Made by a program: the position numbers and the translations under genes. The notes under the pieces are model-generated. The model made no database searches. It was not told the DNA's origin and was given only the letters and a program-made list of their open reading frames with translations. Positions 1 through 62,019 of a stretch of 64,000 nucleotides of DNA are shown one piece after another. The stretch lies in NCBI GenBank assembly GCA_038209015.1, contig JBBQYC010000001.1:18974-82973 (forward strand), read 5' to 3'. Every line of letters starts with the position of its first letter. Position 1 is the first letter of the stretch. Source of the stretch: Candidatus Saccharimonadales bacterium. GTDB lineage: Bacteria; Patescibacteriota; Saccharimonadia; Saccharimonadales; JBBQYC01.

Positions 1-1376
1 ACATACCCTGTCCAAGCATGTTAGTGAAAATTATAAGGAACTGACATATCTGATAAGAAAATGCTATAAAAATGGTCGCTAAAAATAAACGAGGAAACGC
101 TTTCTTAACTGTGTAGGCGCTTACAAACTCAAAACCAAGAGCTGTGCTGATAACCATGATAAGCATGACTGGGATGAGAATAATATACGCAAGGTTACGC
201 AAGCGACCCCAAGTGCCTGCTATGCCATCATTTGCAATGTAAGCATCCGGGGTGTTAAGGAGGTCGGATATTTTATTGTCTAAGAATACAAATGTACTGT
301 CCGCAAAACGTAGAAATGGACAAAGCAACCACGATAGGTCACTTGTTTCGCACGACTGTTGCTCACCCTCCCCGACCGCATTACTACTACCAGTAATTGC
401 CGCAGCTGTTGCCTCGGCAGATTCCGAATCGGCGCCTGCGACTGTTACTTCGACCGTCTGGTTTGAGCCATCCTTTTTAATATCAAACGTCCCAGTGTTA
501 GTGCCAAGGGCATCTATTTGGGCCTGCGTAGCCTGTATATATAAGTCGCCGGTACAATCCTCGCTGCGGAACTGGTTTCGGCTTTCGCACCATACGAATG
601 TTCGTGTGTCTTGTTCGCTCGTAGAAACGTGCTGGATGGCACCGTCGTCAGTAACGTTATAGGTAATATTAAAATTACTAAGACTACCCTGCTGTAGATC
701 TTTGTAGACCTTAACGCCTTTTAGACCGGCGCTAATACTATCAAAACATTCCCAAATCGGTCCCTTGTCATCATTGTTTTTGTTATGGAAAACAAAGTTT
801 CCATTCTGCGACGTACAGGTTACCTGTTCAACCTCATCCTCTTCGATACCCATAACCAGCTCTATATTTGCCAAAAGTCCTTGTAGGTCGCTAGCGGACA
901 CGGCTTTATCATTTCCGCCGAATGCGTCCCCCACCTTACTTCCAAGATCACCACTGAATTCATCTAATACGGATTCATCATTATCATCTCCATTGCTGTC
1001 CCCGCGCGCGTAGTTGAAGGTGTTATCGCCGGTGTTGCGGTCATAATATTTTCCGCCTATAGCATCCTGAAATTTAATATCGTCGATTATATACTGCTGA
1101 TTTGCCCCTGTTGGACTGGCACAGTCACCCGCACCAATATAGGTAATTTCAAATACTGCTCGGTTGATAATTTTAATTCGGAAGATACCGTCAGTTTCGT
1201 GATTGTCATTGCTACCAAGATCATTGGTTTGAATCACGCACAAATCATCGAGGTTTTCATCAGCATATACTGTTCTGGATTGTTCAGGTAATGGGATGGC
1301 AGAAAAAAGACTCACAAAAAGCGTGAATGTAAGAAACCACAGGGAGATCCCTGCTTTATTTATTTTGAAACCCATA
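1..1376 (-). CDS. large secreted/integral membrane protein, N-terminal 458 codons only (start ATG at 1376..1374, continues past window start); signal peptide, ~400-aa ectodomain, then multi-TM region; possible T4SS channel (VirB6/TrbL-like) component
   Basis: Hand translation of minus strand from ATG 1376 down to position 1 gives 458 sense codons without a stop (MGFKINKAGISLWFLTFTLFVSLFSAIPLPEQ...). It is absent from the ORF track only because no stop lies in the window. Hydrophobic helices sit at the window-proximal end (NLAYIILIPVMLIMVISTALGF; LFLATIFIAFSYQICQFLIIF). Confidence 0.7.
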
Positions 1377-1463
1377 AAATTATTCTAACATTACTAGTGA
1401 AGAAACTGCTAACGCTGGTCAAACATACATTTAATACCTATAATATGATATACCTTTATATAT

Positions 1464-2150
1464 ATGACTAAAAAACAAACATTATTTCTCGGCTTGACTC
1501 AACTAGTCCTACTAGCAGCTACTTTTTTGGTATTTTCTGCACCAAAAGTAAGTGCACAAACACCACCACAATGCCAGGGTGCGGGTTCAGCGGATGCAAT
1601 GGAAGCATGTTCGCGAAATGCTATTGAAGACGAGTGTGGAGAAGCCCCAAGTGCTGGGACGCCTATTCGGCAAGCTGAGGCTTATGAAGAGTGTAGGCGC
1701 AGTACTACTTCAGGTGATAGCGATAATGATGGTATCTCCGACGAAATTGAGGAAATATGTGGAACGCCCACGAATGACTCCCAGTCCCAAGGCTTCGATG
1801 CATGTCGACAACAAGTTGAAGCAGGTACCCACCCATCACAACAACAATCAACAGGAGGATCGAACGAAACTGTTCAAAGTACTGGCAGTCTAGACGGCGA
1901 CTGCAAGGATATTAATGACTGCAAGATAATCGGATATCTGCGTGACTTCATCAATCTCTTATCCGTAGTTGTAGGTATAGTCGTTGCGATAATGATAGTG
2001 GTGGGCGGTATTCAGTACAGCGCTTCACGGGATAATCCACAGGCAACGGCAGCGGCGAAACAACGGGTCACAAACGCTGTCATAGCACTTGTTGTCTACG
2101 TGTTTATATTCGCTATACTTGAATACTTGGTCCCTGGAGGTGTGTTCTAA
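1464..2150 (+). CDS. VirB2/TrbC-like pilin-type protein A: signal peptide, 10-Cys acidic ectodomain, C-terminal helix-loop-helix module
   Basis: N-terminal signal peptide (MTKKQTLFLGLTQLVLLAATFLVFSAPKVSA). C-terminal LLSVVVGIVVAIMIVVGGIQY-loop-VTNAVIALVVYVFIFAIL, shared with the five downstream paralogs. Confidence 0.6.
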   Translation: MTKKQTLFLGLTQLVLLAATFLVFSAPKVSAQTPPQCQGAGSADAMEACSRNAIEDECGEAPSAGTPIRQAEAYEECRRSTTSGDSDNDGISDEIEEICGTPTNDSQSQGFDACRQQVEAGTHPSQQQSTGGSNETVQSTGSLDGDCKDINDCKIIGYLRDFINLLSVVVGIVVAIMIVVGGIQYSASRDNPQATAAAKQRVTNAVIALVVYVFIFAILEYLVPGGVF

Positions 2151-2536
2151 TGCTACAGACTCTTACTCGATTTGCAGCCACCTGTCAGGATCTCGGCGGC
2201 AGCTTACCAGATAGAATATATGGTATCCCAACATGGTATAAGTATTTGCCATCGGAAGATGTTGCGGGTAAATGCTCACCTGTCATAGATTTGAGTGGCG
2301 ATGGTCAAGCGTCGGTGATTGCAATATTGTTAGCCGTATTCGATATACTGATATTTTTTGCAGGTCTCATTGCTGTAGGGTACGTTATATTCGGGGCTAT
2401 TCAGTTTATGGTGAGCCAGGGTGAGCCAGATAAAATCAAGAACGCTCGAAACACTGTTATGAATGCGCTCGTCGGACTTGTGCTTGTTCTGGTCTCAACC
2501 GTCGTCGTTAATCTAATAGGAAACACTCTTACATGA
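2150..2536 (+). CDS. VirB2/TrbC-like two-TM paralog B (no signal peptide)
   Basis: Overlaps the upstream stop (TAATG). Two hydrophobic helices separated by SQGEPDKIKNARNTV, the same loop motif as the paralogs. Confidence 0.55.
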   Translation: MLQTLTRFAATCQDLGGSLPDRIYGIPTWYKYLPSEDVAGKCSPVIDLSGDGQASVIAILLAVFDILIFFAGLIAVGYVIFGAIQFMVSQGEPDKIKNARNTVMNALVGLVLVLVSTVVVNLIGNTLT

Positions 2537-2820
2537 AATTTTTAGCGCAGTTTACAAAAGACGATTTCCCATCCATTCCAGACGCACCCGACCCAACCAA
2601 AGGCTTACCTCTAGCTGACGCTATGCAACTCATCTTTGGAATAATTGGAGTGATTGCAGTCGTGATGATAATGGTCGGCGGCTTTAAGTACATTGCATCA
2701 CAGGGTAATCCGCAAGAAACAGCCAAAGCAAAAAATACTATTTTGTACGCGGTCATAGGTCTTGTGCTCGCAGCCAGCGCATTTACCATTGTTTCGTTCA
2801 TAGTGGAGACAGCCAAATGA
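2533..2820 (+). CDS. VirB2/TrbC-like two-TM paralog C (short, no signal peptide)
   Basis: ATGA overlap with B. Contains IGVIAVVMIMVGGFKYIASQGNPQETAKAKNTILYAVIGLVLAASAF. Confidence 0.55.
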   Translation: MKFLAQFTKDDFPSIPDAPDPTKGLPLADAMQLIFGIIGVIAVVMIMVGGFKYIASQGNPQETAKAKNTILYAVIGLVLAASAFTIVSFIVETAK

Positions 2821-3230
2821 TTCGGTTAGCGCTAATGGCGACATTTATGGCATTATTTTGCGTGTTTCAGTTTGCGACTGTACCTGCTGCGGCAGAAGTG
2901 CTTGATCCTGCATGCGACATTACCACCACTGACGAGAACGGTAAGCAGATAAAGTCCCCTTTGTGTCCCGATGAAAACGAAACCATAGATGATAATTCCC
3001 TGTTCGGCCCAGGCGGTATAGCCACGCGACTCGTTAACCTGTTCTCATACATTATTGCTATTGCTGGCGTGATAGTAATCATCATCGGTGGATTCAAATA
3101 TGTTATATCGTCGGGCGACCAACAAAACATAAATAATGCCAAAAACACCATTTTGTACGCAGTCATAGGACTGGCAATAGCCGCTGTTGCCCAATTATTT
3201 GTCAGATTTGTGTTGTATAATATTAAGTAA
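2817..3230 (+). CDS. VirB2/TrbC-like pilin-type protein D (signal peptide + small Cys ectodomain)
   Basis: ATGA overlap with C. Signal peptide MIRLALMATFMALFCVFQFATVPAAA. Contains IAIAGVIVIIIGGFKYVISSGDQQNINNAKNTILYAVIGLAIAAVAQL. Confidence 0.6.
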   Translation: MIRLALMATFMALFCVFQFATVPAAAEVLDPACDITTTDENGKQIKSPLCPDENETIDDNSLFGPGGIATRLVNLFSYIIAIAGVIVIIIGGFKYVISSGDQQNINNAKNTILYAVIGLAIAAVAQLFVRFVLYNIK

Positions 3231-3250
3231 GCAATTAAAAGGATATCTAT

Positions 3251-3673
3251 ATGCAAAAAATAAAACAGTTTTTATCAACATCATTGAACGCGAGCCTAAT
3301 AGCTATGCTGCTTGCTTTTGGAGTTATCGCAATGGCAAGCGTGCCAGTAAATGCGCAAGCCGATGAAATATGTAAAGGTGTCGGTTACGTTGACAATGAC
3401 CCTAATAAAACCGAATGTGACGCAAGTGCGGACGGTACGGTTCGGAAAGTCGTCAAACTAGTCATAAATGTGTTTAGCTGGATAGTTGGAATTATCTCTG
3501 TCATCATGATTATCATCGGTGGACTTAAGTACATTACTTCGACTGGTGAAAGCAGCAATATTAATAGTGCCAAGAACACGATACTCTATGCCATCATCGG
3601 TTTAGTAGTGGTTGCCTTAGCTCAGATTATTGTTCTATTCGTTCTTGGTAGCGTGGACAGTCAGACTTCATAG
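3251..3673 (+). CDS. VirB2/TrbC-like pilin-type protein E
   Basis: Signal peptide ending VNAQA. Contains IISVIMIIIGGLKYITSTGESSNINSAKNTILYAIIGLVVVALAQI. Preceded by RBS-like aaagga. Confidence 0.6.
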   Translation: MQKIKQFLSTSLNASLIAMLLAFGVIAMASVPVNAQADEICKGVGYVDNDPNKTECDASADGTVRKVVKLVINVFSWIVGIISVIMIIIGGLKYITSTGESSNINSAKNTILYAIIGLVVVALAQIIVLFVLGSVDSQTS

Positions 3674-3745
3674 CGGATAGCTAAGAGTTGTCATCAGAGT
3701 TCTATCTGTGATATAACACCTATAAATCAATAAGAAAGGTTTTCA

Positions 3746-4162
3746 ATGTTAAAACGAATTAAATCAACGCTCACCAGCTTGTTGCTCAGTTCTATGTTCT
3801 TCCTACCAATGGCCGTACCAGCGACTGTTGCCGCCCAGGATCTCGTAGACTGTGAAGGAATTCAGGGCTGTTTAACTGAAGGTGCAGATAAAACTGGCGA
3901 TGCCACAGCTGACGAGGCTGGCACGCAGGTAAACAATATTGTGCGTTTAGTCATTAACACCTTTTCATGGGTTGTTGGAATCATCTCTGTCATCATGATT
4001 ATCATCGGTGGACTTAAGTACATTACCTCCGGTGGTGAAGGTAGCAATATCTCCGCAGCCAAAAACACGATACTCTACGCCATCATCGGTTTAGTCATTG
4101 TGGCACTTGCTCAGATTGTAGTTCAGTTCGTACTAAAGAACGTTACTGATTCCTCTGTCTAA
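3746..4162 (+). CDS. VirB2/TrbC-like pilin-type protein F (recent duplicate of E in the C-terminal half)
   Basis: Signal peptide ending TVAAQ. C-terminal module nearly identical to E at both protein and nucleotide level. Confidence 0.6.
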   Translation: MLKRIKSTLTSLLLSSMFFLPMAVPATVAAQDLVDCEGIQGCLTEGADKTGDATADEAGTQVNNIVRLVINTFSWVVGIISVIMIIIGGLKYITSGGEGSNISAAKNTILYAIIGLVIVALAQIVVQFVLKNVTDSSV

Positions 4163-4184: not shown

Positions 4185-4214
4185 GACTCCCTTTCCAGGG
4201 AGCCTTTTGTTTTA
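4185..4214 (+). terminator. rho-independent terminator after the pilin-like array
   Basis: CTCCC-TTTCCA-GGGAG hairpin (4187..4202) followed by CCTTTTGTTTT. Confidence 0.6.
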
Positions 4215-4218
4215 TATT

Positions 4219-4247
4219 AAAAACTCCTCGGTAGCGAGGAGTTTTTA
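4219..4247 (-). terminator. bidirectional rho-independent terminator (serves the minus-strand hsp20 gene)
   Basis: AAAAA-CTCCTCG-GTAG-CGAGGAG-TTTTT perfect hairpin flanked by A and T runs. Confidence 0.65.
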
Positions 4248-4265
4248 ATTACTAAGACTAGGGCC

Positions 4266-4778
4266 TTAGAGGACTTGGATTTTCTTTACCGTGTCTTGTT
4301 TGACCTTAGTGAAAGAAATAGTCAGCACACCGTCTTTAAGAACAGCTTCAATCTCTTCTTCTTTAACGGGAACTGGTAAGGCAATACTGCGGCTAAATTC
4401 ACCCCAGTAACATTCCTGAACAAAGTAATTCTCTACATTCTCATCGTTACCAGCGCTCAATGTACCACGGATACTAAGCGTATTGTCGGCAATACTTACA
4501 TCTAGATCCGCCTTGTTAACACCGGCTACCCTGCCCTTTACGACAAGTCGTTCTTTGGTTTCGTATACGTCTACGGCGAGCTGTCCTGGGACTGCTTCAT
4601 CTTCAGTCCAGTCATCTTCAGTAATTGGCGCACTCTGTGGCATAGCTGGTTGTTGTTGCCCTTGGTCTGTCGGCACGTCGAATTCTTCCTCACCTAGAAA
4701 CGCTGCTGTCAGCTCATCTTCCATCAATAAATCGTCGTCACGGCCTTTACGTGCCATTGTTGTTACCCTCCGCGTCAA
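4266..4778 (-). CDS. small heat-shock protein, Hsp20/alpha-crystallin family
   Basis: C-terminal alpha-crystallin-like domain (AVDVYETKERLVVKGRVAGVNKADLDVSIADNTLSIRG...GVLTISF). The probable true start is the internal MARKGRDD (~4757). Confidence 0.75.
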   Translation of the reverse strand: MTRRVTTMARKGRDDDLLMEDELTAAFLGEEEFDVPTDQGQQQPAMPQSAPITEDDWTEDEAVPGQLAVDVYETKERLVVKGRVAGVNKADLDVSIADNTLSIRGTLSAGNDENVENYFVQECYWGEFSRSIALPVPVKEEEIEAVLKDGVLTISFTKVKQDTVKKIQVL

Positions 4779-4934
4779 AAGACGTTAAAAACTAAGTATT
4801 TTTGGCTTTTTGTTAAATCTAGTATATCCGTGTATATCCAGAGGTGCAACAGCTAGGTCGTTTTATTACAACACAATAATCACAACATGCACTCCACTCA
4901 TGGTTAAATGAGGCAACAATTATAATATATACCA

Positions 4935-5603
4935 ATGCAATTACTCGATAGGATCTTATCGATAGTGGCACCGCTAGAGTGTATGGGGTGCTCGAGTGAG
5001 GAAGGCGTACTCTGCACAATGTGCTTGAATACCCTGCCTCTTGTTCCTAGCCGGTGCTATCGCTGCCAGGCTGCCACCAATAACTTTGAAGTCTGTGGAA
5101 GCTGCCGTAAATACACCAAGCTCGGACATGTCTGGGTTGCAACTGTATATGAAGGGCTTATTAAAGAAGTAATCCATGCCTACAAATATGAGCGAGTACT
5201 ATCGGCGCATAAACAGCTGAGTATGATGCTAGTTGATGCGCTGCCACTAGTCAGTGATATGATTGTGGTGTCTGTGCCAACCGCAACATCAAGGGTAAGA
5301 CAGCGAGGCTACGATCACACTTTGCTGATAGCCAAGGATGTAGCTTTCCAAAAAAACTTGATTAGGAAGCGACCGATGGTTCGGTTTTCTCAATCACGTC
5401 AGGTTGGATCAAGCAGAAAGGCACGTTTTGAACAGTTATCGAACAGTTTTTTTGTCACCCGCCCCCAGGATATTATCGGCAAAAAAGTACTAATTATTGA
5501 CGATGTCATAACAACGGGCGCAACCGTCGAAACCATTGCCGCTCTGTTGAAATCTACAGGAGCGAAAGAAGTGAATGCATTGGTTTGTTCTCAAAAACTC
5601 TGA
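4935..5603 (+). CDS. comF: ComF family protein (competence protein F-like phosphoribosyltransferase)
   Basis: N-terminal Cys4 cluster (CxxC...CxxC) and a C-terminal PRTase motif (VLIIDDVITTGATV). Confidence 0.7.
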   Translation: MQLLDRILSIVAPLECMGCSSEEGVLCTMCLNTLPLVPSRCYRCQAATNNFEVCGSCRKYTKLGHVWVATVYEGLIKEVIHAYKYERVLSAHKQLSMMLVDALPLVSDMIVVSVPTATSRVRQRGYDHTLLIAKDVAFQKNLIRKRPMVRFSQSRQVGSSRKARFEQLSNSFFVTRPQDIIGKKVLIIDDVITTGATVETIAALLKSTGAKEVNALVCSQKL

Positions 5604-5777
5604 TTTGTACCAAAGATAAAAGCTGATATAATCACCCCTGTTACAATTTACAGCTGTTTCAGGATTGCAATTAGCGATACGCTGACTGTAGTTTTGATAA
5701 AAGTGATCGGTGTGGGTATGCCTTTTTGTCGATAATATGTTTACCGACAGATAGTATACCCACCTACGCTTTACCTT

Positions 5778-5870
5778 GGAGAGGTACCCAAGTGGCTGAA
5801 GGGGCGGCTTTGCTAAAGCTGTAGGGGGGCGCAAGTCCCCGCGAGGGTTCGAATCCCTCTCTCTCCGCCA
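5778..5870 (+). tRNA. tRNA-Ser (anticodon GCT), long variable arm, CCA encoded
   Basis: GGAGAGG acceptor stem. Anticodon stem-loop CGGCT-TTGCTAA-AGCTG. Long extra arm. T-arm GAGGGTTCGAATCCCTC. Confidence 0.85.
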
Positions 5871-6024
5871 GGAAAGGAGTGGTCATGGGTAGTATGGCCC
5901 TTCTTTCCTAGAGAATTTTGAACACAAGGTTCGATAATCGAATGATATTTATACTGAAGTCAAAATTGCCAATTTTCTAAGATAAAACAGTTTTGGCTTG
6001 AAGTATTAGCCCTCTCTGCCGATG

Positions 6025-6378
6025 CTAGTCCATATTTATTCTATGTATTTCTTTCGGTATTACTGATCTACGATTAGCCAAACACATTTTTATGAGAAAT
6101 TCTTCGTCTTTCGGCTTATAAATATATAACCAGTCATACTCGTTGATAGCTGACTTCTTGATAACATACCCTTTTGAATTTGAATGAATTTTCCGTAGGT
6201 CTACTTCTTTGCCTCCAAAATACTTAACCTGCACCCGCCATAAACCCAATGAGTCATCAACGATAAGATCATAGGCTGCAGATTCCGTAAGGGGTAGCGA
6301 AATATCGAAACCCATTTTAGTAAATGTAGCAATAGCTTGTGTTACGGCTATATCCCCTTTTCGTTGAGTCGGTCTCAT
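6025..6378 (-). CDS. small PD-(D/E)XK-like nuclease-fold hypothetical protein
   Basis: Motif AYDLIVDD...LWRVQVKY fits the D-x(n)-(E/Q)-x-K nuclease core. Sits between two tRNA-Ser genes. Confidence 0.4.
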   Translation of the reverse strand: MRPTQRKGDIAVTQAIATFTKMGFDISLPLTESAAYDLIVDDSLGLWRVQVKYFGGKEVDLRKIHSNSKGYVIKKSAINEYDWLYIYKPKDEEFLIKMCLANRRSVIPKEIHRINMD

Positions 6379-6444
6379 AGGTAAATAGTAACATTAAACG
6401 GTTTAGTATACCGTTGATTTTTTATGATATAATTTTACGCTATT

Positions 6445-6534
6445 GGAGAGATGACCGAGTGGTTGAAGGTACTTGTCTTGAAAACAAGCGTGCCCGCAAG
6501 GGTACCGTGGGTTCGAATCCCACTCTCTCCGCCA
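6445..6534 (+). tRNA. tRNA-Ser (anticodon TGA), CCA encoded
   Basis: GGAGAGA acceptor. Anticodon stem-loop CTTGT-CTTGAAA-ACAAG. Long variable arm. T-arm GTGGGTTCGAATCCCAC. Confidence 0.85.
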
Positions 6535-6543
6535 AGAAGAAAA

Positions 6544-6565
6544 ACTCACTCCAGTGAGTTTTTTA
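6544..6565 (+). terminator. rho-independent terminator after tRNA-Ser(TGA)
   Basis: ACTCACT-CC-AGTGAGT hairpin followed by TTTTTT. Confidence 0.6.
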
Positions 6566-6614
6566 ATTTCGTTACTTATGCATCGTAGGGGTTTTGTAGT
6601 CAACTTGGTACAAT

Positions 6615-6932
6615 ATGCTTATGTCCAGTAGTGAGCTCTCTGCAATGTTCTGTTATGTATATCTCCTTCGATCTGAGATGAGCAATAATTGGTATGTCGG
6701 TTTTACTAACGATTTACGCAAAAGATTAACAGAACACAACAATGGCTTGAATCGTTCAATAGCCCATGGTAAACCGTGGGTATTTGAATACTACGAGGCG
6801 CATCGGAATGAGACTGATGCACGAAGGCGAGAGAATTATCTTAAAACCAGCGCTGGTCATCAGACACTACGTAGAACGTTACGCGAACAACTAAGCCGCC
6901 GCGATTCAAGCCGGCAGAAAGTCTACTACTAG
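6615..6932 (+). CDS. GIY-YIG nuclease family protein (UPF0213-like)
   Basis: YVYLLRSEMSNNWYVGFTNDLRKRLTEHN matches the GIY-YIG core (Y..Y..G...NL..R...H). The probable start is the internal ATG (MFCYVYLL, ~6645). Confidence 0.7.
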   Translation: MLMSSSELSAMFCYVYLLRSEMSNNWYVGFTNDLRKRLTEHNNGLNRSIAHGKPWVFEYYEAHRNETDARRRENYLKTSAGHQTLRRTLREQLSRRDSSRQKVYY

Positions 6933-6934
6933 GT

Positions 6935-7555
6935 ATGCAACCAGGGGAAACAATCACACCGGGACAGACAACTGAACCATCTGGCGAAACCGAACAGAAG
7001 TTTCGCTACAGTGCAGAACCTGCTAACCCGCAACCATCCCCTACTCCAGTGCCTCCTACACAAAGCCCAGCACAACCAGAAGCGATATATGAACAAGCTA
7101 CTTTAGCCGAGTGGAGTGCTTCAGAATATATAGATCATCATAAATCCATAGAATGGTACGCGGTTCTAGTCTTAGCTTCGGTATTACTAGGCGGGTTGCT
7201 GTATCTTGTAACGCGTGACTGGATAAGCGTCGTCGTGGTTCTGCTAGCTGCTGGCATGTTCGGAATCAGTGGCGCCAAAAAGCCACGAACTCTCACATAT
7301 AGGATTACGGAGAGTGGCGTCCAGGTAGCGGGAAAACTGTATCCATATGAAGATATAAAAGTGTTCTCTGTGGTTAATGAGGGTGGTGTTAGCTCAATTC
7401 AACTCCTACCTCTCCGTAGATTTATGCCACCACTAAGTATTTACTATCCACCAGATATGGAAGAGCCTATATTTAATGCTTTAGCTAACTATCTCCCACA
7501 CGAAGAGAATAAACATGACCCCGTAGACCGTCTCATGAAGCGTTTGCGATTCTAG
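6935..7555 (+). CDS. hypothetical membrane protein, Pro-rich N-terminus, two TM helices
   Basis: ORF with PTPVPPTQSPAQP low-complexity and TM segments (WYAVLVLASVLLGGLLYLV; SVVVVLLAAGMFGI). Confidence 0.5.
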   Translation: MQPGETITPGQTTEPSGETEQKFRYSAEPANPQPSPTPVPPTQSPAQPEAIYEQATLAEWSASEYIDHHKSIEWYAVLVLASVLLGGLLYLVTRDWISVVVVLLAAGMFGISGAKKPRTLTYRITESGVQVAGKLYPYEDIKVFSVVNEGGVSSIQLLPLRRFMPPLSIYYPPDMEEPIFNALANYLPHEENKHDPVDRLMKRLRF

Positions 7556-7558
7556 TAG

Positions 7559-7996
7559 TTATTTCTTTTTTGGAAGTTTGAGCAATGTACGGAACGAGTT
7601 ACTTTTGAGTCTATTACCGTAATCATTCGCGCCCTTCGTTCCTGGTGCGACCAGTAAGTACACAGCGGCCAAGAAGTTAATAATAGGTACAACCGCAAAA
7701 ATAATGAGCCACCATGGCTGGTTTAGGTCGTGAAGCCTGCGCACAATTGTGCTGGTTTCTATAATTACCGCGATGAGCTGAAACATCCCTAACAGCAAAA
7801 GTCCAGCCCCGACTACCACCAGTTGATACAGGACTGAATCGGTACCATATTTTTCGAGGTATGTTCCTAGAACAATTGCCGGAGCCACTACGACTAACAC
7901 GATTGCCGCTAGGATGAGCGAAAAATATATCGACGTTAGAAGGAATTGTATGCGTGACAACCGCCCCTGGAAAAGAGATGTTATGTATTCAATCAT
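7559..7996 (-). CDS. DUF805-family inner membrane protein
   Basis: GRLSRIQF N-terminal motif and RRLHDLNQPWW motif typical of DUF805 (YhaH-like). Multiple TM helices. Confidence 0.65.
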   Translation of the reverse strand: MIEYITSLFQGRLSRIQFLLTSIYFSLILAAIVLVVVAPAIVLGTYLEKYGTDSVLYQLVVVGAGLLLLGMFQLIAVIIETSTIVRRLHDLNQPWWLIIFAVVPIINFLAAVYLLVAPGTKGANDYGNRLKSNSFRTLLKLPKKK

Positions 7997-20084: not shown

Positions 20085-20867
20085 TTGATGAGTCAACGAG
20101 AACCATCTCAAGAAGTAATGCGTTCACGCGTACAGGAGTTAGAGCTGTTCCAAGCTTCTCTGACGAGTGTAGTAGACGAAGTAGTAGATCAGCTTGCTAT
20201 TCGCGATTTTGATATTGAAAAAGATTTCAGAGTGCTTTGGGCGGAAGGTAATAATGCCCGAGAAGTGCCTGTCAAACACCAGACATACCGTCAACGCACA
20301 CTTAGTCATATGACAAAAGTACTGCCGGCTATGCGCAAAGCTATAGGTGAAGGTCTTATTACTAATCCAAACGACGCTGGTGACCTTGCTGGTACCCTAA
20401 TGGCATTCGAGGGCAGCCCCTCAGCTTGTTTGCGCTATCTACGCGGTACTTCAAACAGCTTGGTCAGTGAACCTATTCGCCCCCGTGAACTCATCAATAT
20501 CCTTGGCGCATACCAAGCAATACTTGATGTTACGCCTACCGAAGGTGAAGCTAAACTGCCGAAACCAACACTAGCTAGCGCTATCTCATCTGCGCAGGAC
20601 TGGGGCTTTGACCTCATGCATCCGTTAACTGAAGCAGATATAGACAATGTTCACGCATCGATTGATGAGTACCAGTTCGTCGAAACGGTATCGCGTGCTA
20701 GCAGGGAAGGTCAACCGTACCAAACGATACACTTGATAGATGCAACTTCACAGCGCCGGAATCCGATTGGTTTTACTGCTGTTTCCTCTGATGATATGCG
20801 ACGAGACAGTACTCTTGAAGACTACATGCTCAGGGATGTGCTTCAAGATGACATGGCTACCAGCTAG
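20085..20867 (+). CDS. hypothetical cytoplasmic protein (operon gene 1 of 5)
   Basis: ORF with RBS aaggag 8 nt upstream. No recognisable domain. Confidence 0.55.
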   Translation: MMSQREPSQEVMRSRVQELELFQASLTSVVDEVVDQLAIRDFDIEKDFRVLWAEGNNAREVPVKHQTYRQRTLSHMTKVLPAMRKAIGEGLITNPNDAGDLAGTLMAFEGSPSACLRYLRGTSNSLVSEPIRPRELINILGAYQAILDVTPTEGEAKLPKPTLASAISSAQDWGFDLMHPLTEADIDNVHASIDEYQFVETVSRASREGQPYQTIHLIDATSQRRNPIGFTAVSSDDMRRDSTLEDYMLRDVLQDDMATS

Positions 20868-20875
20868 GAGTCGCT

Positions 20876-22150
20876 ATGCCGAAAAATTTTGACGAACTCA
20901 TGGGCGAACAAGCTCGTAACCCATTCGAAACTAGCGGGCTGACGCCAGAAGCCGTTAAGGCGCTGCACGAATCCGGTGATCCGGAGCTGCTGCAAACCGC
21001 GGTAAACGGGGTTATGCGGGCGCTGTCCCGAGGTATGCACCCAGATGCCACGGGCAAGCAAGCCGGTGATTTTTTTATGCAACTGGTTGAATCAAACAAG
21101 CTTATCCAGGGATATGACACAGGAGCAGTCCAGCAGTTAGCCACCGATTACACTAGAAAAAAACGCGGTACGAAAGCGGCCAAGCCGGAGGTTGTACAAG
21201 TCCATCAGGACCGCAGCCATGAGTTACTTCTAAACATTGCAGGGCAGCCACTTGGTGAATTAGGCCCAAGTTTTAACCCGAACACCGGTATTGAGTTCAC
21301 GAGCCTTCAGAAGGAGTTCATAAATATACCTAATCGACTATTAATGCACCGCACCGATGAAGATCGTTGGCAACTCAGTGAGTACCACTATGCGGAAATT
21401 GAAGAGCGTGAACTCGATGAAAACGGGAAGCTTCAGCGTGATAATTCGCTTGGTCATGAAATGGTCGGCAATATGGATTGGCAACGGTTAGTTACTGCAC
21501 GTCATGTAAAAAATTTGCAACGCGGGTTTATGTATATCAATAGGGAAACAAACCAAAAATTAGCAATAGATGCTGTACATGTATCAGGCATGGTGCACCG
21601 GTTGGGCGACAGCCTTGTGCTGTTTGATGAAAGCGGTAATAAAGTTGATACGTACCCTAATGACCTTACTGAGACCGATGACGCTACTGACGATAGCTTC
21701 TATCGCTTGTCACTAACGGTAGCTGGTACCAATGAGGACGATTTAACCGTACAGACTGCGACGGCGCGACGGTATATGTACCGGGATGACGAACCTGAAA
21801 TATACGATTTCCGACTACTCGGCACAACTGATGAAGTATTTGCACAACAAGTCGTAGCTGATTTGCGCAGATCGGTCCGTGGTGACGAGCCGCGCCGTTT
21901 CAATGAACAGGTAACGATTAGTGAATTAAATGTCGGTATCTCGCGTTCTAACCAGCTTTCCAGCCTCGGATTTTCACTCCAATCCGAACAAATAAAAAAA
22001 ATAGGCGAGCATTTTACGCCCGCGATTGTTCCTGAAAATCATTTAGTGGTGTCAGACGGTGAGAAACTATATTTGTTAGGGGTGGCTCAGCGGCTCTACA
22101 AAAATATGTTTGCGAACCACCCACTGTCCGTACCGCTCTCCGGTTATTGA
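20876..22150 (+). CDS. hypothetical cytoplasmic protein, 424 aa (operon gene 2 of 5)
   Basis: ORF 9 nt after gene 1. No recognisable domain. Confidence 0.55.
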   Translation: MPKNFDELMGEQARNPFETSGLTPEAVKALHESGDPELLQTAVNGVMRALSRGMHPDATGKQAGDFFMQLVESNKLIQGYDTGAVQQLATDYTRKKRGTKAAKPEVVQVHQDRSHELLLNIAGQPLGELGPSFNPNTGIEFTSLQKEFINIPNRLLMHRTDEDRWQLSEYHYAEIEERELDENGKLQRDNSLGHEMVGNMDWQRLVTARHVKNLQRGFMYINRETNQKLAIDAVHVSGMVHRLGDSLVLFDESGNKVDTYPNDLTETDDATDDSFYRLSLTVAGTNEDDLTVQTATARRYMYRDDEPEIYDFRLLGTTDEVFAQQVVADLRRSVRGDEPRRFNEQVTISELNVGISRSNQLSSLGFSLQSEQIKKIGEHFTPAIVPENHLVVSDGEKLYLLGVAQRLYKNMFANHPLSVPLSGY

Positions 22151-22196
22151 CAAAATACACATAAAAATGTTATAATCTTCCATAATAAGGAGTGTT

Positions 22197-22841
22197 ATGT
22201 CTGGACTGAGTTTAGAGCAGCTGGAACGAGTACGTGATGAGGCCAATGGTATAGTCACTAAATATAATGTCCTCAAGGACGACCCCTTGCACGCCCTGGA
22301 AACCGGAGAAGGTAATTGTTTCGCCAAGGCTATTTTGGCCGCGGGGATTATTTCGGTGCGTCACAGCCTCGGTGATGATGTGCCGGCCGGCGTATTTAGT
22401 GCCCGACTTCATGCCACAGAAAAACCGTCTTCTTTCGGAATGCCGCCCAAGGCAAACCGTGGACATTACACCTTACTCGTTCCGGATAGTGAACGACTTG
22501 CTCGTGATGACGAATGGGGTATTTTTAGTCTCGATTTCGGCATAGACGGCCGTGAAGATTCCGGCGATATCATGGACTATAACGAAGTCGGTGACTGTGT
22601 GTACTACGCCGGGCTATCGAATAAAATTAAAGCAACTCCACTTTTTGCTGAACAAAATCATATGTTTGTAACTGGCTGGAAGGAAAGCGCTAACACCTAC
22701 CTCAAACTCATAGCCGACGGTCCGCGCGATATGAATGATCCAATCCCGGAGCTGCCGTTTAATCCCGCACTCCAAGACCAGGTGAATTATGATCAGATGC
22801 TGGAAATGTTGGCGCAGAAACCACACCTAGAACTTTTATGA
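22197..22841 (+). CDS. hypothetical protein with possible transglutaminase-like/papain-like Cys-His-Asp arrangement (operon gene 3 of 5)
   Basis: GEGNCFAKAILAAGI (G-x-C-F-A), downstream RGHYTL and DFGID. RBS aaggag upstream. Confidence 0.5.
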   Translation: MSGLSLEQLERVRDEANGIVTKYNVLKDDPLHALETGEGNCFAKAILAAGIISVRHSLGDDVPAGVFSARLHATEKPSSFGMPPKANRGHYTLLVPDSERLARDDEWGIFSLDFGIDGREDSGDIMDYNEVGDCVYYAGLSNKIKATPLFAEQNHMFVTGWKESANTYLKLIADGPRDMNDPIPELPFNPALQDQVNYDQMLEMLAQKPHLELL

Positions 22842-23221
22842 ACACATTCCCGCTAGGATATACTGGTCGTATGAGTGAAGAAACTCCAGAAACGTATTCG
22901 TTCGGGCACGGCAACGCTATTGTAGAGCCAAAACAGTTGCAGCTGGATTTGGGAATCACTCCAGAAGACCAGCAGGAACAAAACTACGCTCGCCAATCTA
23001 TGAAAAAAGAAATGGGAGGCTTTGCATTAACAGCTTATTTGCAATCGCTTGATTCGAATCTCACTGGTGATCTTTTAGGATTAGTAGAGGGAGAAACACG
23101 CTTTATTAAAAGTAATGAACAGCGTCTCAATGATATTATTGAGGCTGCAAAACTTACCGGCAAGAGAGAGCTTATCACTGAGCTGTTACATAGGTATGAG
23201 CAGACACGAGACTTGCAATAA
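22838..23221 (+). CDS. hypothetical protein, 127 aa (operon gene 4 of 5)
   Basis: ATGA overlap with gene 3. Confidence 0.5.
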   Translation: MNTFPLGYTGRMSEETPETYSFGHGNAIVEPKQLQLDLGITPEDQQEQNYARQSMKKEMGGFALTAYLQSLDSNLTGDLLGLVEGETRFIKSNEQRLNDIIEAAKLTGKRELITELLHRYEQTRDLQ

Positions 23222-23250
23222 TAGCAACAATGTGCTAATATACTATAGTT

Positions 23251-24033
23251 ATGTTACAAACAAAAATTGATAATCCCTACGAAACACTTGAACTCTTTAT
23301 TACAGATTTTCATGAAAGCCAGCACTCGCCAGACGTCACCGTAGAAGATAAAAGTCAGTTATTAAACACTATCGGTCGCTTTGGGCTGCAGCATGGCCTC
23401 CCGATTGATTACATCGCGCATCGATTAGAGATGCCTACGGATAGTTTGTTGCAAGAGCTTGAAGTTGATGAAGCGCTAAGCAAAGCCTTTCATAAGACGA
23501 CCACAGAGGGTTTGAATATGGGTGGTAGTCCTGAAAAAACCGATACTTCCGTCTATACGACTGATCCTGAAGCGCTTGGTTGGTTAAACGGTAAGCCTGC
23601 CGTGAAGTTGCCGGCAGTCCTTGTTGAAACCGAAGATCTAACCTACCGCTTGGTGGATTTAGTTGGTCTTCACCGCGTGCCGAAGAAGCTCAGGCAAAAA
23701 TTACTTGATCAGCATGAATACGAAAGTCTACATGAAAAACTAACTCATGAAGCGATTCCGAAGCTCTATAAGGATGTAAAGACACTTGATGGTAAGCTGC
23801 GTCCCGTTGCTATGGGCAATCGTACAAAAAAAGAAGCAGAAGCCGTTGCCAGTTTCAAATGTAAGCTTCCAGCTTACAAAGTTGATGCCCACGGTACAAA
23901 TAATAGGGCAATCATCGTGTTTTTAGGTAATAGTAGCGATAAGGAGCCGGTTCCTCAGTTTGGGCTTGCGGCGTTATATGATCATGATGACGATGAGGCA
24001 ATTCACTCAGCGTTATTTGCTAAGCAGAAATAA
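23251..24033 (+). CDS. hypothetical protein, 260 aa (operon gene 5 of 5)
   Basis: ORF 30 nt after gene 4. No recognisable domain. Confidence 0.5.
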   Translation: MLQTKIDNPYETLELFITDFHESQHSPDVTVEDKSQLLNTIGRFGLQHGLPIDYIAHRLEMPTDSLLQELEVDEALSKAFHKTTTEGLNMGGSPEKTDTSVYTTDPEALGWLNGKPAVKLPAVLVETEDLTYRLVDLVGLHRVPKKLRQKLLDQHEYESLHEKLTHEAIPKLYKDVKTLDGKLRPVAMGNRTKKEAEAVASFKCKLPAYKVDAHGTNNRAIIVFLGNSSDKEPVPQFGLAALYDHDDDEAIHSALFAKQK

Positions 24034-58077: not shown

Positions 58078-59994
58078 TTGGGAAAATTCCGCATACCATA
58101 CAGTAAAGAACACATACATACTATGAGCATCATACATACAGTATTACGTCCCATACAATCGATTTTCGGATTTTTGGGGCGCCTATCTCTTAAGATAAAA
58201 CTAGTGTTAACCGCCTTACTGGTGCTTGCAGGAGCCGCTTTCGTAGCTTTTGCATTTATATTGCCAGGTACACCGCCAGCCAGTAATCACGTTATTTTCT
58301 TATATAGTTCTGAAAACGGCTACAGTGAGACACAGTATGGCTTTGAACCGGTTAGGTACCCAACGGTGCTATATGACAATGGACTTTTTGTCTGTGGTTC
58401 TTCACATGTGGGTGAGGGAACGCCTAAGCAGCGTTATTTGGATAAGAAAACGCAGCAAACTTTCTTTGAGGAGCTTGGGGCTTCTGGCTTCCTTGGCCTG
58501 AAGAGCGGTGATTATTCTGAAGATTCAGAATTCCCCCAACCACTTGATTTAGAAACGACTATTTATGCAAATAAAGACGATCAACCCATTCACGTTACGT
58601 ATAGCAGCCCTGTATCACCTAAAAAACTTTCTAAAACAACAGCGTATATACAGACATTCTGCAACAAAGAGATACGAGACGATTTCCATACTGGCACCTA
58701 TCTGGTTCGAGCTATTAAGCTCGATGACGCCAAACAAGCTGGCCAGGAGTACCGTACCGTCCAAGTCGATCAGGCAACTGCTGATATGTTCGTGCGGACC
58801 AATGTTATTGAACCACAACAGTCAAAAACCGTAGACCAAAAATCATATGAAGAATTTCAATCAACCTTCAAAGCCGATACCGCGATACTTGCATATGAAG
58901 ACAAGCTGTTTCTCGTAAATATAACTCCTGCACTGCATCCATACGAACTAGCAGGCGGAAATATAGCTCATGCTCGCTCAGCAGATGTGGCAGGTGACAG
59001 CACTAACAAGCAAGTACTCGCTGATGCGACCCCGCACGTAGAATTCATTTGGCTTCATGGATCAAACCAAGCCCCTCCATCCGATGCCACTACTATTTTG
59101 CGTAGAACATCTCAGCGCGTCCGCGACTGGTATATGAGCAAAGCCGGCAAGACCCTGAAGTTTGGGGGAAACCGAGTATTAAAATCATCTCAAACAATCG
59201 GGCAGATCGAAACGTGTCCGAGCGAAACGGACTGCCAAGGCGATAAGTCCTTAGCGGCCTACTATAATTTGAAAAAAAGCGTATACCCCGATCTCACCGG
59301 ACGACAGGTCGTAGTGTTATACCAAGGAACACACGACCAATGTAACGGCTGGGGTGCGCCGAATAGCGGCGATTATGGTGGGGGGAGTTTGAACTCTGCG
59401 GGAACCTCGAACGGAGGCTTTGGTCTACTCAATATTATAGCTTGCAATTGGGATAATGGTAGGGAAAAGGTGGCAGGTCATGAGCTGGGGCATGCCTTAG
59501 GTTCAACTCATTGGTGCCAAGATAAAAATATTATGGTCGGTTCGGGATGTTCCAGTTCCGCTCGCTCCGACGGACTTCGCTATGCGAATATGAATGATAC
59601 GCAAAAAAACGCATTTTTGGGCAGTGAATTCTTTAAAAAGTCGAGTGATAGATTGTTACCAGGCCAACGTCTCTACTCTGGCGGGGTGATGCATTCAATA
59701 GATGGGAGTTACAGGCTTATTGTTCAACCAACAGATGGAAATGTCGTAGTTTACAGAAATGACAATGCATATAAGTGGGATTCAACCACGTACAATCCAG
59801 GGAACCCTCACATTATATTTGAGTTTGCAGAGGACGGTAACGTGCATGCATCAACAGATTATAGTTATGGCTGCCGCTCTGGTCCAAGGCCTGGGGCTAA
59901 TCGACTTATTATGCAACATGACGGTAATCTTGTCGCATATGATGCGGCGAATCAAGCAAAATGGGCAACCTCCTGGAATTATTGGTACTGTTAA
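58078..59994 (+). CDS. membrane-anchored metzincin-type zinc metalloprotease fused to C-terminal bulb-type (B-)lectin domain, paralog 1
   Basis: HELGHALGSTH (HExxHxxGxxH). C-terminal QxDxNxVxY-type repeats (VQPTDGNVVVY; MQHDGNLVAY). N-terminal signal-anchor TM. The first ATG is at 58123 (the track start at 58078 is TTG). Confidence 0.65.
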   Translation: MGKFRIPYSKEHIHTMSIIHTVLRPIQSIFGFLGRLSLKIKLVLTALLVLAGAAFVAFAFILPGTPPASNHVIFLYSSENGYSETQYGFEPVRYPTVLYDNGLFVCGSSHVGEGTPKQRYLDKKTQQTFFEELGASGFLGLKSGDYSEDSEFPQPLDLETTIYANKDDQPIHVTYSSPVSPKKLSKTTAYIQTFCNKEIRDDFHTGTYLVRAIKLDDAKQAGQEYRTVQVDQATADMFVRTNVIEPQQSKTVDQKSYEEFQSTFKADTAILAYEDKLFLVNITPALHPYELAGGNIAHARSADVAGDSTNKQVLADATPHVEFIWLHGSNQAPPSDATTILRRTSQRVRDWYMSKAGKTLKFGGNRVLKSSQTIGQIETCPSETDCQGDKSLAAYYNLKKSVYPDLTGRQVVVLYQGTHDQCNGWGAPNSGDYGGGSLNSAGTSNGGFGLLNIIACNWDNGREKVAGHELGHALGSTHWCQDKNIMVGSGCSSSARSDGLRYANMNDTQKNAFLGSEFFKKSSDRLLPGQRLYSGGVMHSIDGSYRLIVQPTDGNVVVYRNDNAYKWDSTTYNPGNPHIIFEFAEDGNVHASTDYSYGCRSGPRPGANRLIMQHDGNLVAYDAANQAKWATSWNYWYC

Positions 59995-60114
59995 TTCGAG
60001 ATTTTCCGTAAAAATCTATAAATAAGATCCAAGGTAATTCATTACCATTCTAAGTTGACAAACCGTATTGTATAAACATATGCTTCAATCAATACATTAT
60101 ATAAGGATTAAGCT

Positions 60115-62019
60115 ATGGCTGGCCGCACATTAAAACTCAAAACAAAAACAAAAACTTCTGTAAAAAAGTCTAATCGCAAAAAACAGCAAAGTAAATTGAA
60201 AGTATTCTTCAATATACTAAAACAAAGGAGGGCAATCCTTTTTGCGGTGTTTTTTGCAATCATTGGAGTAACCATACTGTATCTGGTGAATGCCCAGAAT
60301 ACGCCGAATACATATAATGAAGTAGCCTTTCTCTATAGCGAAGGCCATGGACATGAAGAATCACAATTTGACCTTAAACCGGTTGATTATCCATTAGTTT
60401 TATATAAGGATGGTTTATTGGTTTGTTCAGCACACGGTCATGGCAGTGAAGAATCCAGCCCAACACAGGCACAGCTTAACAAAGAGCAAATGAATGAGTT
60501 TCTATCTGCTGTCAGAACTAATGGGCTAGATAGTTTAGAAGAAAAACATTATGAATCAGCTGGTGGCCCGGCGGATCCTATAGCGTTATATACGACTGTT
60601 TTTGCCGACTTTGGCAGGAGCCAAAAATACGTAACATATAGTTCTGGTGATAGGCCAAGTGGGCTGAGTAGCATTACTTCATTTACGCACAATTACTGTG
60701 ATAATAAGGCAGTGGAAGCCTATGATGCCGACACCTATACTGTAGACAGTGTCATTATAGATAATCAAACGAATTCTAGAGTAACAGGACTCGCTAAAGC
60801 GCGAGAGGTGATTGGTGCCAAACTGAGCCGTAATGACCGCTTAGCTCAGGCTATCCGCAGCATAGACAACGCTAATAAAAAGCAGGCACAAAGTGTCAAC
60901 CGGCAGACTGCAAGTGAGATAAAAAAAGCGCTCAAAGGTAAGTCGGAGGGCGTCATGACGATAGAAGGTGCTGAAGTGCTAGTGCGGCTTACTCCGTTAC
61001 TAAGACCTTACGAATTAAAAGGGCAGAGTAATGTCAGCATAGAGAATGAGTCAGACAAAGTGTATGCCGCGACGGCAAAAAAAGTCGAATTTGTATGGTT
61101 CTATGCGTCCAATCAATCGTTACAAAGCGGATACACGACTAAATTAAACGGTACATCACAAAAAGTGCGCAGCTGGTACCGTAGTCAGGTGGGTGAAGAT
61201 GTTTTACATGCTAAGAACTACACCAAAAAAGGGGCAAAAACAGTAGCTCAATATGAAACCTGCCCGAGTGGTAAAAACTGTGCTGGTGATAAATTACTTG
61301 CTGCGTTTTATAATGTGCAGGCAGAGCTGGGGACACTAACTGATGCCCAGGTTGTCGTAATGTTTCAGGGCAGTGAAACCACCTGCAAAGGCTGGGGGAG
61401 TGTCGCTGGGTCGACCGCTAATAACTCTGTAACTGCAGCCAAATCAGGTACTGGTATAGTCAATGTGACGGGTTGTACGTGGGATGATGGACGTGAGAAA
61501 ATAGCAGGTCATGAGTTTGGCCATGGCCTAGGATCGGCACATTCATGCTACAACTATAATATTATGGCTAATAGTTCTTGCGCGACTACAGGCAATGGCT
61601 TACCACATTCAATACTGCACAGTACTCAGAAATCATCATGGGCAAATTACAGTCAGTTTTTCGGCGGAGTGCGTACTTACCTCAACGGCAACGAACATAT
61701 GTACCAAGGCCATACAACATATTCACCGCAGAAAAAATATCGATTAGTCATGCAAGGGGATGGTAACCTGGTCATATACAGCAGCAATAATTCAGCGGTA
61801 TGGAGTGCTAGAACTGGTGGTAACAGCGGTGCATTCTCTATATTCCAGACAGATGGCAATTTGGTACTCAGAAAACCAAGCGGTAAATATTGTCATGCTG
61901 CAAGCAACGGCAAGGGCGGGTATCGTCTCAATATGCAAGATGATGGCAACTTGGTTATCTACAAATCTGACCTAAAGACTGCCGTGTGGTCACGATACAA
62001 TGGTTGGTACTGCAACTAG
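60115..62019 (+). CDS. membrane-anchored metzincin-type zinc metalloprotease fused to C-terminal bulb-type lectin domain, paralog 2
   Basis: HEFGHGLGSAH. Three lectin repeats (MQGDGNLVIY; FQTDGNLVL; MQDDGNLVIY). Basic N-terminus + TM. Confidence 0.65.
   Translation: MAGRTLKLKTKTKTSVKKSNRKKQQSKLKVFFNILKQRRAILFAVFFAIIGVTILYLVNAQNTPNTYNEVAFLYSEGHGHEESQFDLKPVDYPLVLYKDGLLVCSAHGHGSEESSPTQAQLNKEQMNEFLSAVRTNGLDSLEEKHYESAGGPADPIALYTTVFADFGRSQKYVTYSSGDRPSGLSSITSFTHNYCDNKAVEAYDADTYTVDSVIIDNQTNSRVTGLAKAREVIGAKLSRNDRLAQAIRSIDNANKKQAQSVNRQTASEIKKALKGKSEGVMTIEGAEVLVRLTPLLRPYELKGQSNVSIENESDKVYAATAKKVEFVWFYASNQSLQSGYTTKLNGTSQKVRSWYRSQVGEDVLHAKNYTKKGAKTVAQYETCPSGKNCAGDKLLAAFYNVQAELGTLTDAQVVVMFQGSETTCKGWGSVAGSTANNSVTAAKSGTGIVNVTGCTWDDGREKIAGHEFGHGLGSAHSCYNYNIMANSSCATTGNGLPHSILHSTQKSSWANYSQFFGGVRTYLNGNEHMYQGHTTYSPQKKYRLVMQGDGNLVIYSSNNSAVWSARTGGNSGAFSIFQTDGNLVLRKPSGKYCHAASNGKGGYRLNMQDDGNLVIYKSDLKTAVWSRYNGWYCN

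Follow-up and report, generated by a model that had tools for sequence, protein, structure and literature searches.

Within a 64,000-nt window of the Candidatus Saccharimonadales bacterium contig JBBQYC010000001.1 (GCA_038209015.1, positions 18,974–82,973), six same-strand genes, here denoted pilin A to pilin F, were found to share one C-terminal two-helix module. They very probably constitute the VirB2-like pilin array of a chromosomal type IV secretion system (T4SS) of the Gram-positive (MPF-FATA-like) type, which is conserved throughout Saccharimonadia. The array is orthologous gene for gene to SEML1_0014–0019 of Southlakia epibionticum and has already been published, and the present result is a correct rediscovery rather than a new system. 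A preliminary description, prepared from the raw sequence alone, had assigned the six genes to the VirB2/TrbC pilins, and the published family assignment was correctly recovered in this manner.

The common module is composed of a hydrophobic helix, a short polar loop, the tripeptide AK(N/Q), and a second hydrophobic helix. A multiple alignment of the six proteins places the motif GG(F/L/I)(K/Q)Y at the end of the first helix and AKNTILYA at the opening of the second, in agreement with the motifs previously noticed. Hydropathy analysis gave two hydrophobic helices of ~30 residues for each protein. All six sequences exceeded the gathering cut-off of the Pfam family PF18895 T4SS_pilin (26.6 bits), with scores from 32.7 to 60.4 bits that are far above chance. 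For PF04956 TrbC/VirB2 (cut-off 27.9 bits), C passed at 29.6 bits, F (21.6 bits) and D (18.3 bits) stayed under the cut-off, and A, B, and E gave no match at E ≤ 1. The best NCBIfam family for all six was NF045849, the Mbov_0395 pilin-like conjugal transfer protein, whose cut-off of 40 bits was passed by C (45.8 bits), with the other five matching under it. A database search with F returned more than 4000 relatives, of which the named ones either carry the annotation “pilin [Patescibacteria group bacterium]” or belong to Candidatus Saccharibacteria. As judged from these profile matches, the module is a T4SS pilin module of the VirB2/TrbC type. The layout typical of VirB2, i.e., two long hydrophobic helices, a short polar loop, and a leader, was also found in the array, except that B and C consist of the two module helices without a classical signal peptide.

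It could be supposed that the T4SS likeness is coincidental and that the six proteins belong to an unrelated family of small membrane proteins, such as holins, bacteriocin immunity proteins, Flp, or type IV pilins. Weak sub-threshold matches, e.g., to cytochrome bd subunit II, DctQ, and DUF6112, could be taken in this sense. Among the Pfam and NCBIfam models, none for a holin, Flp, or type IV pilin matched any of the six proteins at E ≤ 1, while PF18895 was passed by every member and the linkage to VirB4, VirB3, and VirB6 genes described below is invariant. A coincidental likeness is hence extremely improbable and was effectively refuted.

The positions of the six genes and the features around them are compiled in Table 1. 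The junction between A and B is the overlap TAATG, and those of B/C and C/D are ATGA, exactly as previously described; gaps of 20 nt and 72 nt lie ahead of E and F, respectively. In A (VSA↓Q), D (AAA↓E), E (VNA↓Q), and F (VAA↓Q), an AxA-type cleavage site was located behind a hydrophobic stretch at the N-terminus, so that both this search and the hydropathy agree with the original allocation of signal peptides to these four proteins and not to B and C. Pilin A consists of the signal peptide, a long acidic ectodomain with 8 Cys, the module, and a class-specific C-terminal sequence VPGG(V/L)F. Its ectodomain holds a DxDxDG calcium-binding motif like that of TSP3, for which TSP3_bac gave 20.9 bits, under the cut-off. 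The segment concerned, DSDNDGISDE (window 1705–1760, A residues ~84–101), resembles the bacterial thrombospondin type-3 repeat (PF18884, cut-off 25 bits), and an acidic GDSNGDDNDE stretch in the ectodomain of the neighboring VirB6-like protein resembles it in turn. Pilin B carries 2 Cys and a class-conserved N-terminal motif, FAAxC...G(I/L)PTWYKYL...C, in the consensus of 49 orthologues. Pilin C is the shortest, contains neither a signal peptide nor Cys, and has little beyond the bare module. In pilin D, the signal peptide contains one of the 3 Cys of the protein and leads into a short ectodomain with a conserved Cys pair, after which the module follows. Pilins E and F, close paralogues of each other, each comprise a signal peptide and the module together with a Cys pair. 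The N-termini of A, B, and C are mutually unrelated, as had been stated for the whole array, but those of D, E, and F can be aligned, with an identity of 57% over 130 residues for E/F and of 42% over 136 residues for D/E. The ectodomains are Cys-containing as proposed, although the count for A had been given as 10, and B also has Cys. No further copy of the pilin module was found elsewhere in the 64-kb window. The antisense open reading frames (ORFs) at 2529–2816, 2867–3256, 3385–3579, and 3862–4068 (−) lie opposite hydrophobic coding regions and are most likely spurious, not genes.

Table 1. Location of the pilin genes and the features around them in the 64,000-nt window.
Feature	Position	Strand	Length	Evidence
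VirB6-like polytopic membrane protein, N-terminal part	2..1375	−	458 codons	reading frame; colinear alignment with the L003 gene
Promoter-like site TGGTCA-17-TATAAT	1416..1444	+		consensus scan, 10/12 matches; pattern match only
Pilin A	1464–2150	+	228 aa	ORF; PF18895 35.9 bits
Pilin B	2150–2536	+	128 aa	ORF; PF18895 32.7 bits
Pilin C	2533–2820	+	95 aa	ORF; PF18895 60.4 bits
Pilin D	2817–3230	+	137 aa	ORF; PF18895 48.3 bits
Pilin E	3251–3673	+	140 aa	ORF; PF18895 45.8 bits
Putative internal promoter and ribosome-binding site of F	3688..3739	+		−35 TTGTCA, 18-nt spacer, extended −10, Shine–Dalgarno sequence
Pilin F	3746–4162	+	138 aa	ORF; PF18895 45.1 bits
Terminator-like hairpin with T-run	4187–4202			pattern match only
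Perfect 15-nt inverted repeat	4216–4249			pattern match only
Hsp20	4266–4778	−		Pfam
ComF-like phosphoribosyltransferase	4935–5603	+		Pfam
tRNA-Ser	5778–5870	+		tRNA scan

The genomic neighborhood connects this array to a T4SS. An 88-bp intergenic region separates the array from a divergently transcribed VirB6-like gene. The fragment of this gene that falls in the window, cut by the window start, encodes a signal peptide and then a large acidic ectodomain, and it reaches as far as the first transmembrane helices. An hmmscan of the fragment gave no Pfam or NCBIfam match, and it was recognized by alignment with residues 273–443 of a 1036-aa protein encoded at the same position of a related 180-kb contig, L003 (28% identity, E = 3e-15; phmmer 1e-11). 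That contig carries a six-gene array of 208, 128, 91, 134, 124, and 137 aa followed by Hsp20 and phosphoribosyltransferase genes, and upstream of it, in the divergent direction, the 1036-aa polytopic protein, a PrgI-family protein, a 310-aa TraC/TrsD-like protein, a 636-aa ATPase, and a VanY-domain protein are encoded. The ATPase (715–2625) is a VirB4, as it scored 348.8 bits with NF045971 (cut-off 325) and matched PF19044 (E = 4.4e-27) and PDB 4AG5 (E = 1.8e-47), and the PrgI-family protein is supported at E = 4.4e-11. The 1036-aa protein (4685–7795) and the 310-aa protein (2665–3597) bear the precomputed labels PF19590 TrbL_3 and PF26593 TraC-like, respectively, and the latter also gave weak VirB4-N-terminal/TrsD matches in NCBIfam. 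As a separate observation, the 636-aa protein covers positions 174–732 of the 752-position NF045971 profile, and VirB4 appears to be split in Saccharimonadia into a 310-aa protein with weak VirB4-N-terminal/TrsD similarity and the 636-aa protein that follows it.

Upstream synteny was counted over the 32 Saccharimonadia loci with enough upstream sequence. The VirB6-like, PrgI/VirB3-like, and TrsD-like genes were present in all 32, and VirB4 was present in 27; in these related genomes the array lies less than 10 kb from the PrgI/VirB3-like, TrsD-like, and VirB4 ATPase genes. On the downstream side, Hsp20 was found in 58/58 related loci and the phosphoribosyltransferase in 53/58. The flank made of Hsp20, the ComF-like protein, and tRNA-Ser marks the orthology of the locus and is not part of the machine.

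The array was also compared across the class. Taking one genome per GTDB species gave 80 loci, the titles of which are mostly Saccharibacteria, Saccharimonas, or Saccharimonadales, with generic or other metagenome-assembled genome labels for the remainder. When the genes were counted with a hidden Markov model (HMM) of the module, 68 arrays were complete, comprising 45 of six genes, 15 of seven, 3 of eight, 2 of five, 2 of nine, and 1 of ten. Every complete array is one-stranded, and the size pattern and spacing are conserved, with tight A–D junctions, a small D–E gap, and an E–F gap of ~70 nt. Among 49 six-gene arrays, the best cross-genome match of a gene was located at the same array position in 273 of 294 cases. 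Expanded arrays keep the A–E core and mostly add F-type copies, typically giving the order ABCDEFF..., and such copies are duplicated in 23 of the 68 arrays. These sequence comparisons resolve the six genes into six ancient positional orthologue classes in the fixed order A–F. The nearest relative, L086, whose F is 71% identical, contains fragmented pilin genes that look like the product of assembly indels.

For most pairs, the identity of paralogues within a genome is approximately that between genomes. The exception is E/F, with a smaller excess for D/E. The module identity of E and F is 0.68 within genomes against 0.61 between them and reaches 0.80 in this window, where the two modules (3459–3645 and 3948–4134) show 82–83% nucleotide identity over 103-nt and 77-nt stretches; the 80% E/F protein identity in this genome is also higher than that of E with its own orthologues (0.60). 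This excess within genomes suggests occasional gene conversion between E and F, which would be recent in this lineage.

The N-terminal regions change much faster than the module. Between orthologues, identity is 41–67% for the module and 8–28% for the region preceding it. The most extreme case is A, in which 50 to 223 aa precede the module and are 8% identical among the 49 orthologues, compared with 43% for the module itself. The cysteines are retained nevertheless: 2 Cys were counted in 39/49 orthologues of B and 40/49 of D; a Cys pair is kept in D, in E, and in F; C is usually free of Cys; and the number in A is mostly even. The mature N-terminal parts of the pilins are acidic. In conjugative pili such as the F-pilus and T-pilus, whose structures are known, the N-terminus is located on the surface. 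The acidic, Cys-paired segments fit extracellular, disulfide-stabilized, surface-exposed regions.

The dissimilar N-termini within the array had led to the proposal of an antigenic or adhesive variation system, in which a conserved pilus scaffold carries interchangeable exposed N-terminal domains and thereby varies the surface or the host range. Besides the fast-diverging N-termini and the length range of the A ectodomain, the duplication of F-type genes and the slight within-genome excess of E/F identity, with the gene conversion it suggests, are in line with this proposal, and the same idea is voiced in a recent survey (Quinonero-Coronel et al. 2025, Microb Genom; PMC12102498). It is weakly supported by the arrays themselves. 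The six classes are ancient and positionally fixed, paralogues are in general no closer within a genome than between genomes, and it is mainly the F class that duplicates. Neither silent cassettes nor invertible segments nor switching repeats were found in the region, the direct repeats there are the paralogous modules only, no long inverted repeats flank any gene, and the window offers no extra modules. Moreover, B, D, E, and F hold class-specific N-terminal motifs together with their Cys pairs across orthologues, and each orthologue in S. epibionticum was scored essential, which is not expected of redundant variants. We thus regard a variation system as unlikely, although the N-termini do diverge faster than the module.

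F was found to possess putative expression signals of its own. Ahead of F, the elements TTGTCA (3688–3693), TGaTATAAC (3709–3717), and the Shine–Dalgarno (SD) sequence GAAAGG (3734–3739) were read from the sequence; a generic promoter scan missed this site since its −10 element ends in C. The element TGnTATAA occurs in the E–F spacer of 35/49 orthologous arrays, compared with a mean of 1.2 and a maximum of 5 after shuffling, and the same spacer contains TTGnnn at the −35 distance in 34/49 and a GAAAGG-like SD in 43/49. An SD-like core precedes F in 46/49 arrays and A in 8/49. The other promoter-like site, at 1416..1444, sits 20 nt upstream of A, and a terminator-like hairpin and an inverted repeat (4187..4249) lie between the convergent F and hsp20. 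F is also the best-conserved class, with a module identity of 0.73 between orthologues versus 0.42–0.57 for the others. F is the candidate major subunit on four grounds: a conserved promoter of its own, a ribosome-binding site more consistent than those of the other classes, the strongest conservation, and the largest share of extra copies; from these signals we infer that it is separately and strongly expressed and likely to be the bulk subunit. Neither the fixed A–F orthology nor the promoter of F is stated in the published accounts of these arrays that were found.

A model structure of F was constructed with AlphaFold2 using 20 homologues (mean predicted local distance difference test, pLDDT, 74.5). 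It consists of helices 2–29, 38–49, 55–94, and 99–135, which are a signal-peptide helix, a short helix (38–49), and a long hairpin (55–94/99–135). This predicted fold is compatible with VirB2 but gives no proof of it. In the assembly that can be proposed, each pilin would enter the cell membrane as a helical hairpin whose two ends lie outside. For A, D, E, and F this would proceed via a cleaved Sec signal peptide, whereas B and C would be anchored by the first helix. The acidic N-terminal parts would be disulfide-stabilized outside the cell, with the short, basic or polar loop on the cytoplasmic side. By analogy with Gram-negative conjugative pili, the VirB4 ATPase and the VirB6 platform may then pull out the inserted subunits and assemble them as a stack, either a tube or a short conduit, that bears the N-termini on its outer face. 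The six classes are most likely non-redundant parts of one structure, since they are old and each of their S. epibionticum orthologues is essential by itself. The bulk would be supplied by F, with A–E as low-abundance specialized subunits, among which A, with its hypervariable Cys-rich domain, is the best candidate for a host-contacting subunit. As no relaxase or coupling protein was recognized in the S. epibionticum cluster (PMC10633639), the function of this machine is more likely to be protein export or the uptake of host nutrients or DNA than conjugation. A more specific version can be offered as a tentative possibility: a heteromeric envelope-spanning conduit with position-specific building blocks, in which F, driven by its own conserved promoter, forms the shaft, B–E serve as adaptor, initiator, or base, and A provides a hypervariable, disulfide-rich tip that recognizes the host bacterium. 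If this were true, the Saccharibacteria T4SS would be a tube for feeding or injection, and the ectodomain of A would determine its host specificity.

Alternatively, the six proteins may form no filament and act as small membrane subunits of a translocation channel, or as secreted “effectors”. Gram-positive T4SSs were long believed to be pilus-free, and a TM7x transcriptome preprint names “six putative effector genes” beside the T4SS, which may be these six; the absence of a demonstrated filament and the generic helical-hairpin fold also accord with this alternative. It is set against the homology of the module to VirB2/TrbC pilins and against PrgF, the VirB2-like protein of the Gram-positive plasmid pCF10, which was reported in a 2025 preprint to form pili and to be essential for conjugation. 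Two hydrophobic helices of ~30 residues are also ill-suited to soluble effectors. Overall, an array that builds no filament appears rather unlikely.

Several points weigh against the interpretation as a VirB2-like pilin array with F as its major subunit. The VirB4, VirB3, and remaining VirB6 genes of this genome fall outside the window, and the precomputed PF19590 and PF26593 labels of L003 were not reproduced by hmmscan against Pfam-A, even at E ≤ 10. Structure searches with the F model returned generic helical hairpins only, and when the PDB was searched by sequence, neither the F profile nor C yielded a solved pilin, the matches being chance membrane proteins (cytochrome bd, E = 0.28; flippase, E = 3.5). 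The division into major and minor subunits is built on sequence signals, namely promoter motifs, SD motifs, and conservation, and the assembly steps are drawn entirely by analogy. In the literature, no demonstration of a pilus filament made of these proteins was found for Patescibacteria. Finally, a polar effect could contribute to the essentiality scored by transposon sequencing (Tn-seq) for small genes in one operon.

The remainder of the window is occupied by housekeeping genes, including those for ValRS, TsaD, Mur ligase, GroEL, ArgRS, DnaG, RpoD, and PolA, and an Rfam scan of the window gave four tRNAs only. Downstream of the array, two tRNA-Ser genes (5778–5870 and 6445–6534) are interleaved with genes for a small PD-(D/E)XK endonuclease (6025–6378, −) and a GIY-YIG nuclease-domain protein (6615–6932, +); such small nuclease genes around tRNA genes (5778–6932) might represent selfish elements or elements resembling homing endonucleases. 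At 20085–24033, a series of five same-strand ORFs (260, 424, 214, 127, and 260 aa) gave no Pfam match at E ≤ 10 beyond chance level. Two adjacent large paralogous ORFs at 58078–62019 (638 and 634 aa) gave weak reprolysin-like metallopeptidase matches, the second also showing a weak B_lectin match under the cut-off, and the pair possibly encodes secreted or surface proteins.

The closest known system is that of S. epibionticum ML1, for which Wang et al. 2023 (Cell; PMC10633639) reported the T4SS cluster SEML1_0006–0019 to be essential. The tables of that study list SEML1_0014–0019 as six PF18895 proteins of 132, 185, 103, 126, 127, and 138 aa, each graded GD/ES/ES by Tn-seq in co-culture, and SEML1_0013 as a VirB6-like protein on the minus strand that was matched to TrbL/VirB6 by structure. 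The same arrangement was found here, namely a divergent VirB6-like gene, six PF18895 genes, an opposite-strand Hsp20, a ComF-like gene, and tRNA-Ser (SEML1_0013–0022), and the same array layout recurs in 45 of the 68 complete arrays. The last four proteins, of 95, 137, 140, and 138 aa here, are similar in size to those of S. epibionticum. The species is a different one, and the first two proteins differ in size (228 and 128 aa here), which is in line with the variable N-termini of A and B. The survey of Quinonero-Coronel et al. covers 441 VirB2 arrays of 2–11 genes in 383 Patescibacteria assemblies. The tandem arrays it describes consist of PF18895/PF04956 genes close to virB4, are abundant in Saccharimonadia, and show ~25% identity among their members; such arrays are also reviewed in PMC12857230. 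The window array fits that description. The survey appears to present the arrays as variable sets and speaks of antigenic or host-range variation, whereas six fixed classes with duplication mostly of F were found in the present comparison. Few machines of the candidate phyla radiation (CPR) have been shown to be essential for life as an epibiont; the Saccharibacteria T4SS is among them, and the pilin array is what distinguishes it from other Gram-positive-type T4SSs. To the published picture are added the six fixed classes, the putative internal promoter of F, the duplication mostly of F, the conserved Cys pairs, and the hypervariable ectodomain of A, which yield testable hypotheses on the identity of the major pilin and of the subunit that might contact the host.

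Compared with the VirB2/TrbC/TraA pilins of Gram-negative bacteria (PF04956), the present proteins share the leader, the helix-loop-helix hairpin, and the linkage to VirB4, VirB3, and VirB6. They differ in belonging to a monoderm, in having six paralogues in place of one pilin and VirB5, and in their Cys-paired N-terminal extensions; no cyclization or acetylation machinery was identified for them, and no solved pilin was matched. PrgF of Enterococcus pCF10 and the Mbov_0395 family of Mycoplasma integrative and conjugative elements (NF045849) are likewise VirB2-like two-helix proteins of monoderm T4SSs, but these are encoded by single genes on mobile conjugative elements with relaxases, in contrast to the six-gene chromosomal array. 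The VirB2 families of Bartonella and Anaplasma, an analogy cited in PMC12102498, similarly comprise several divergent copies adjoining a T4SS. Those copies are read as antigenic or host-interaction variants, whereas the classes A–F are ancient, ordered, and individually essential in a cultured relative.

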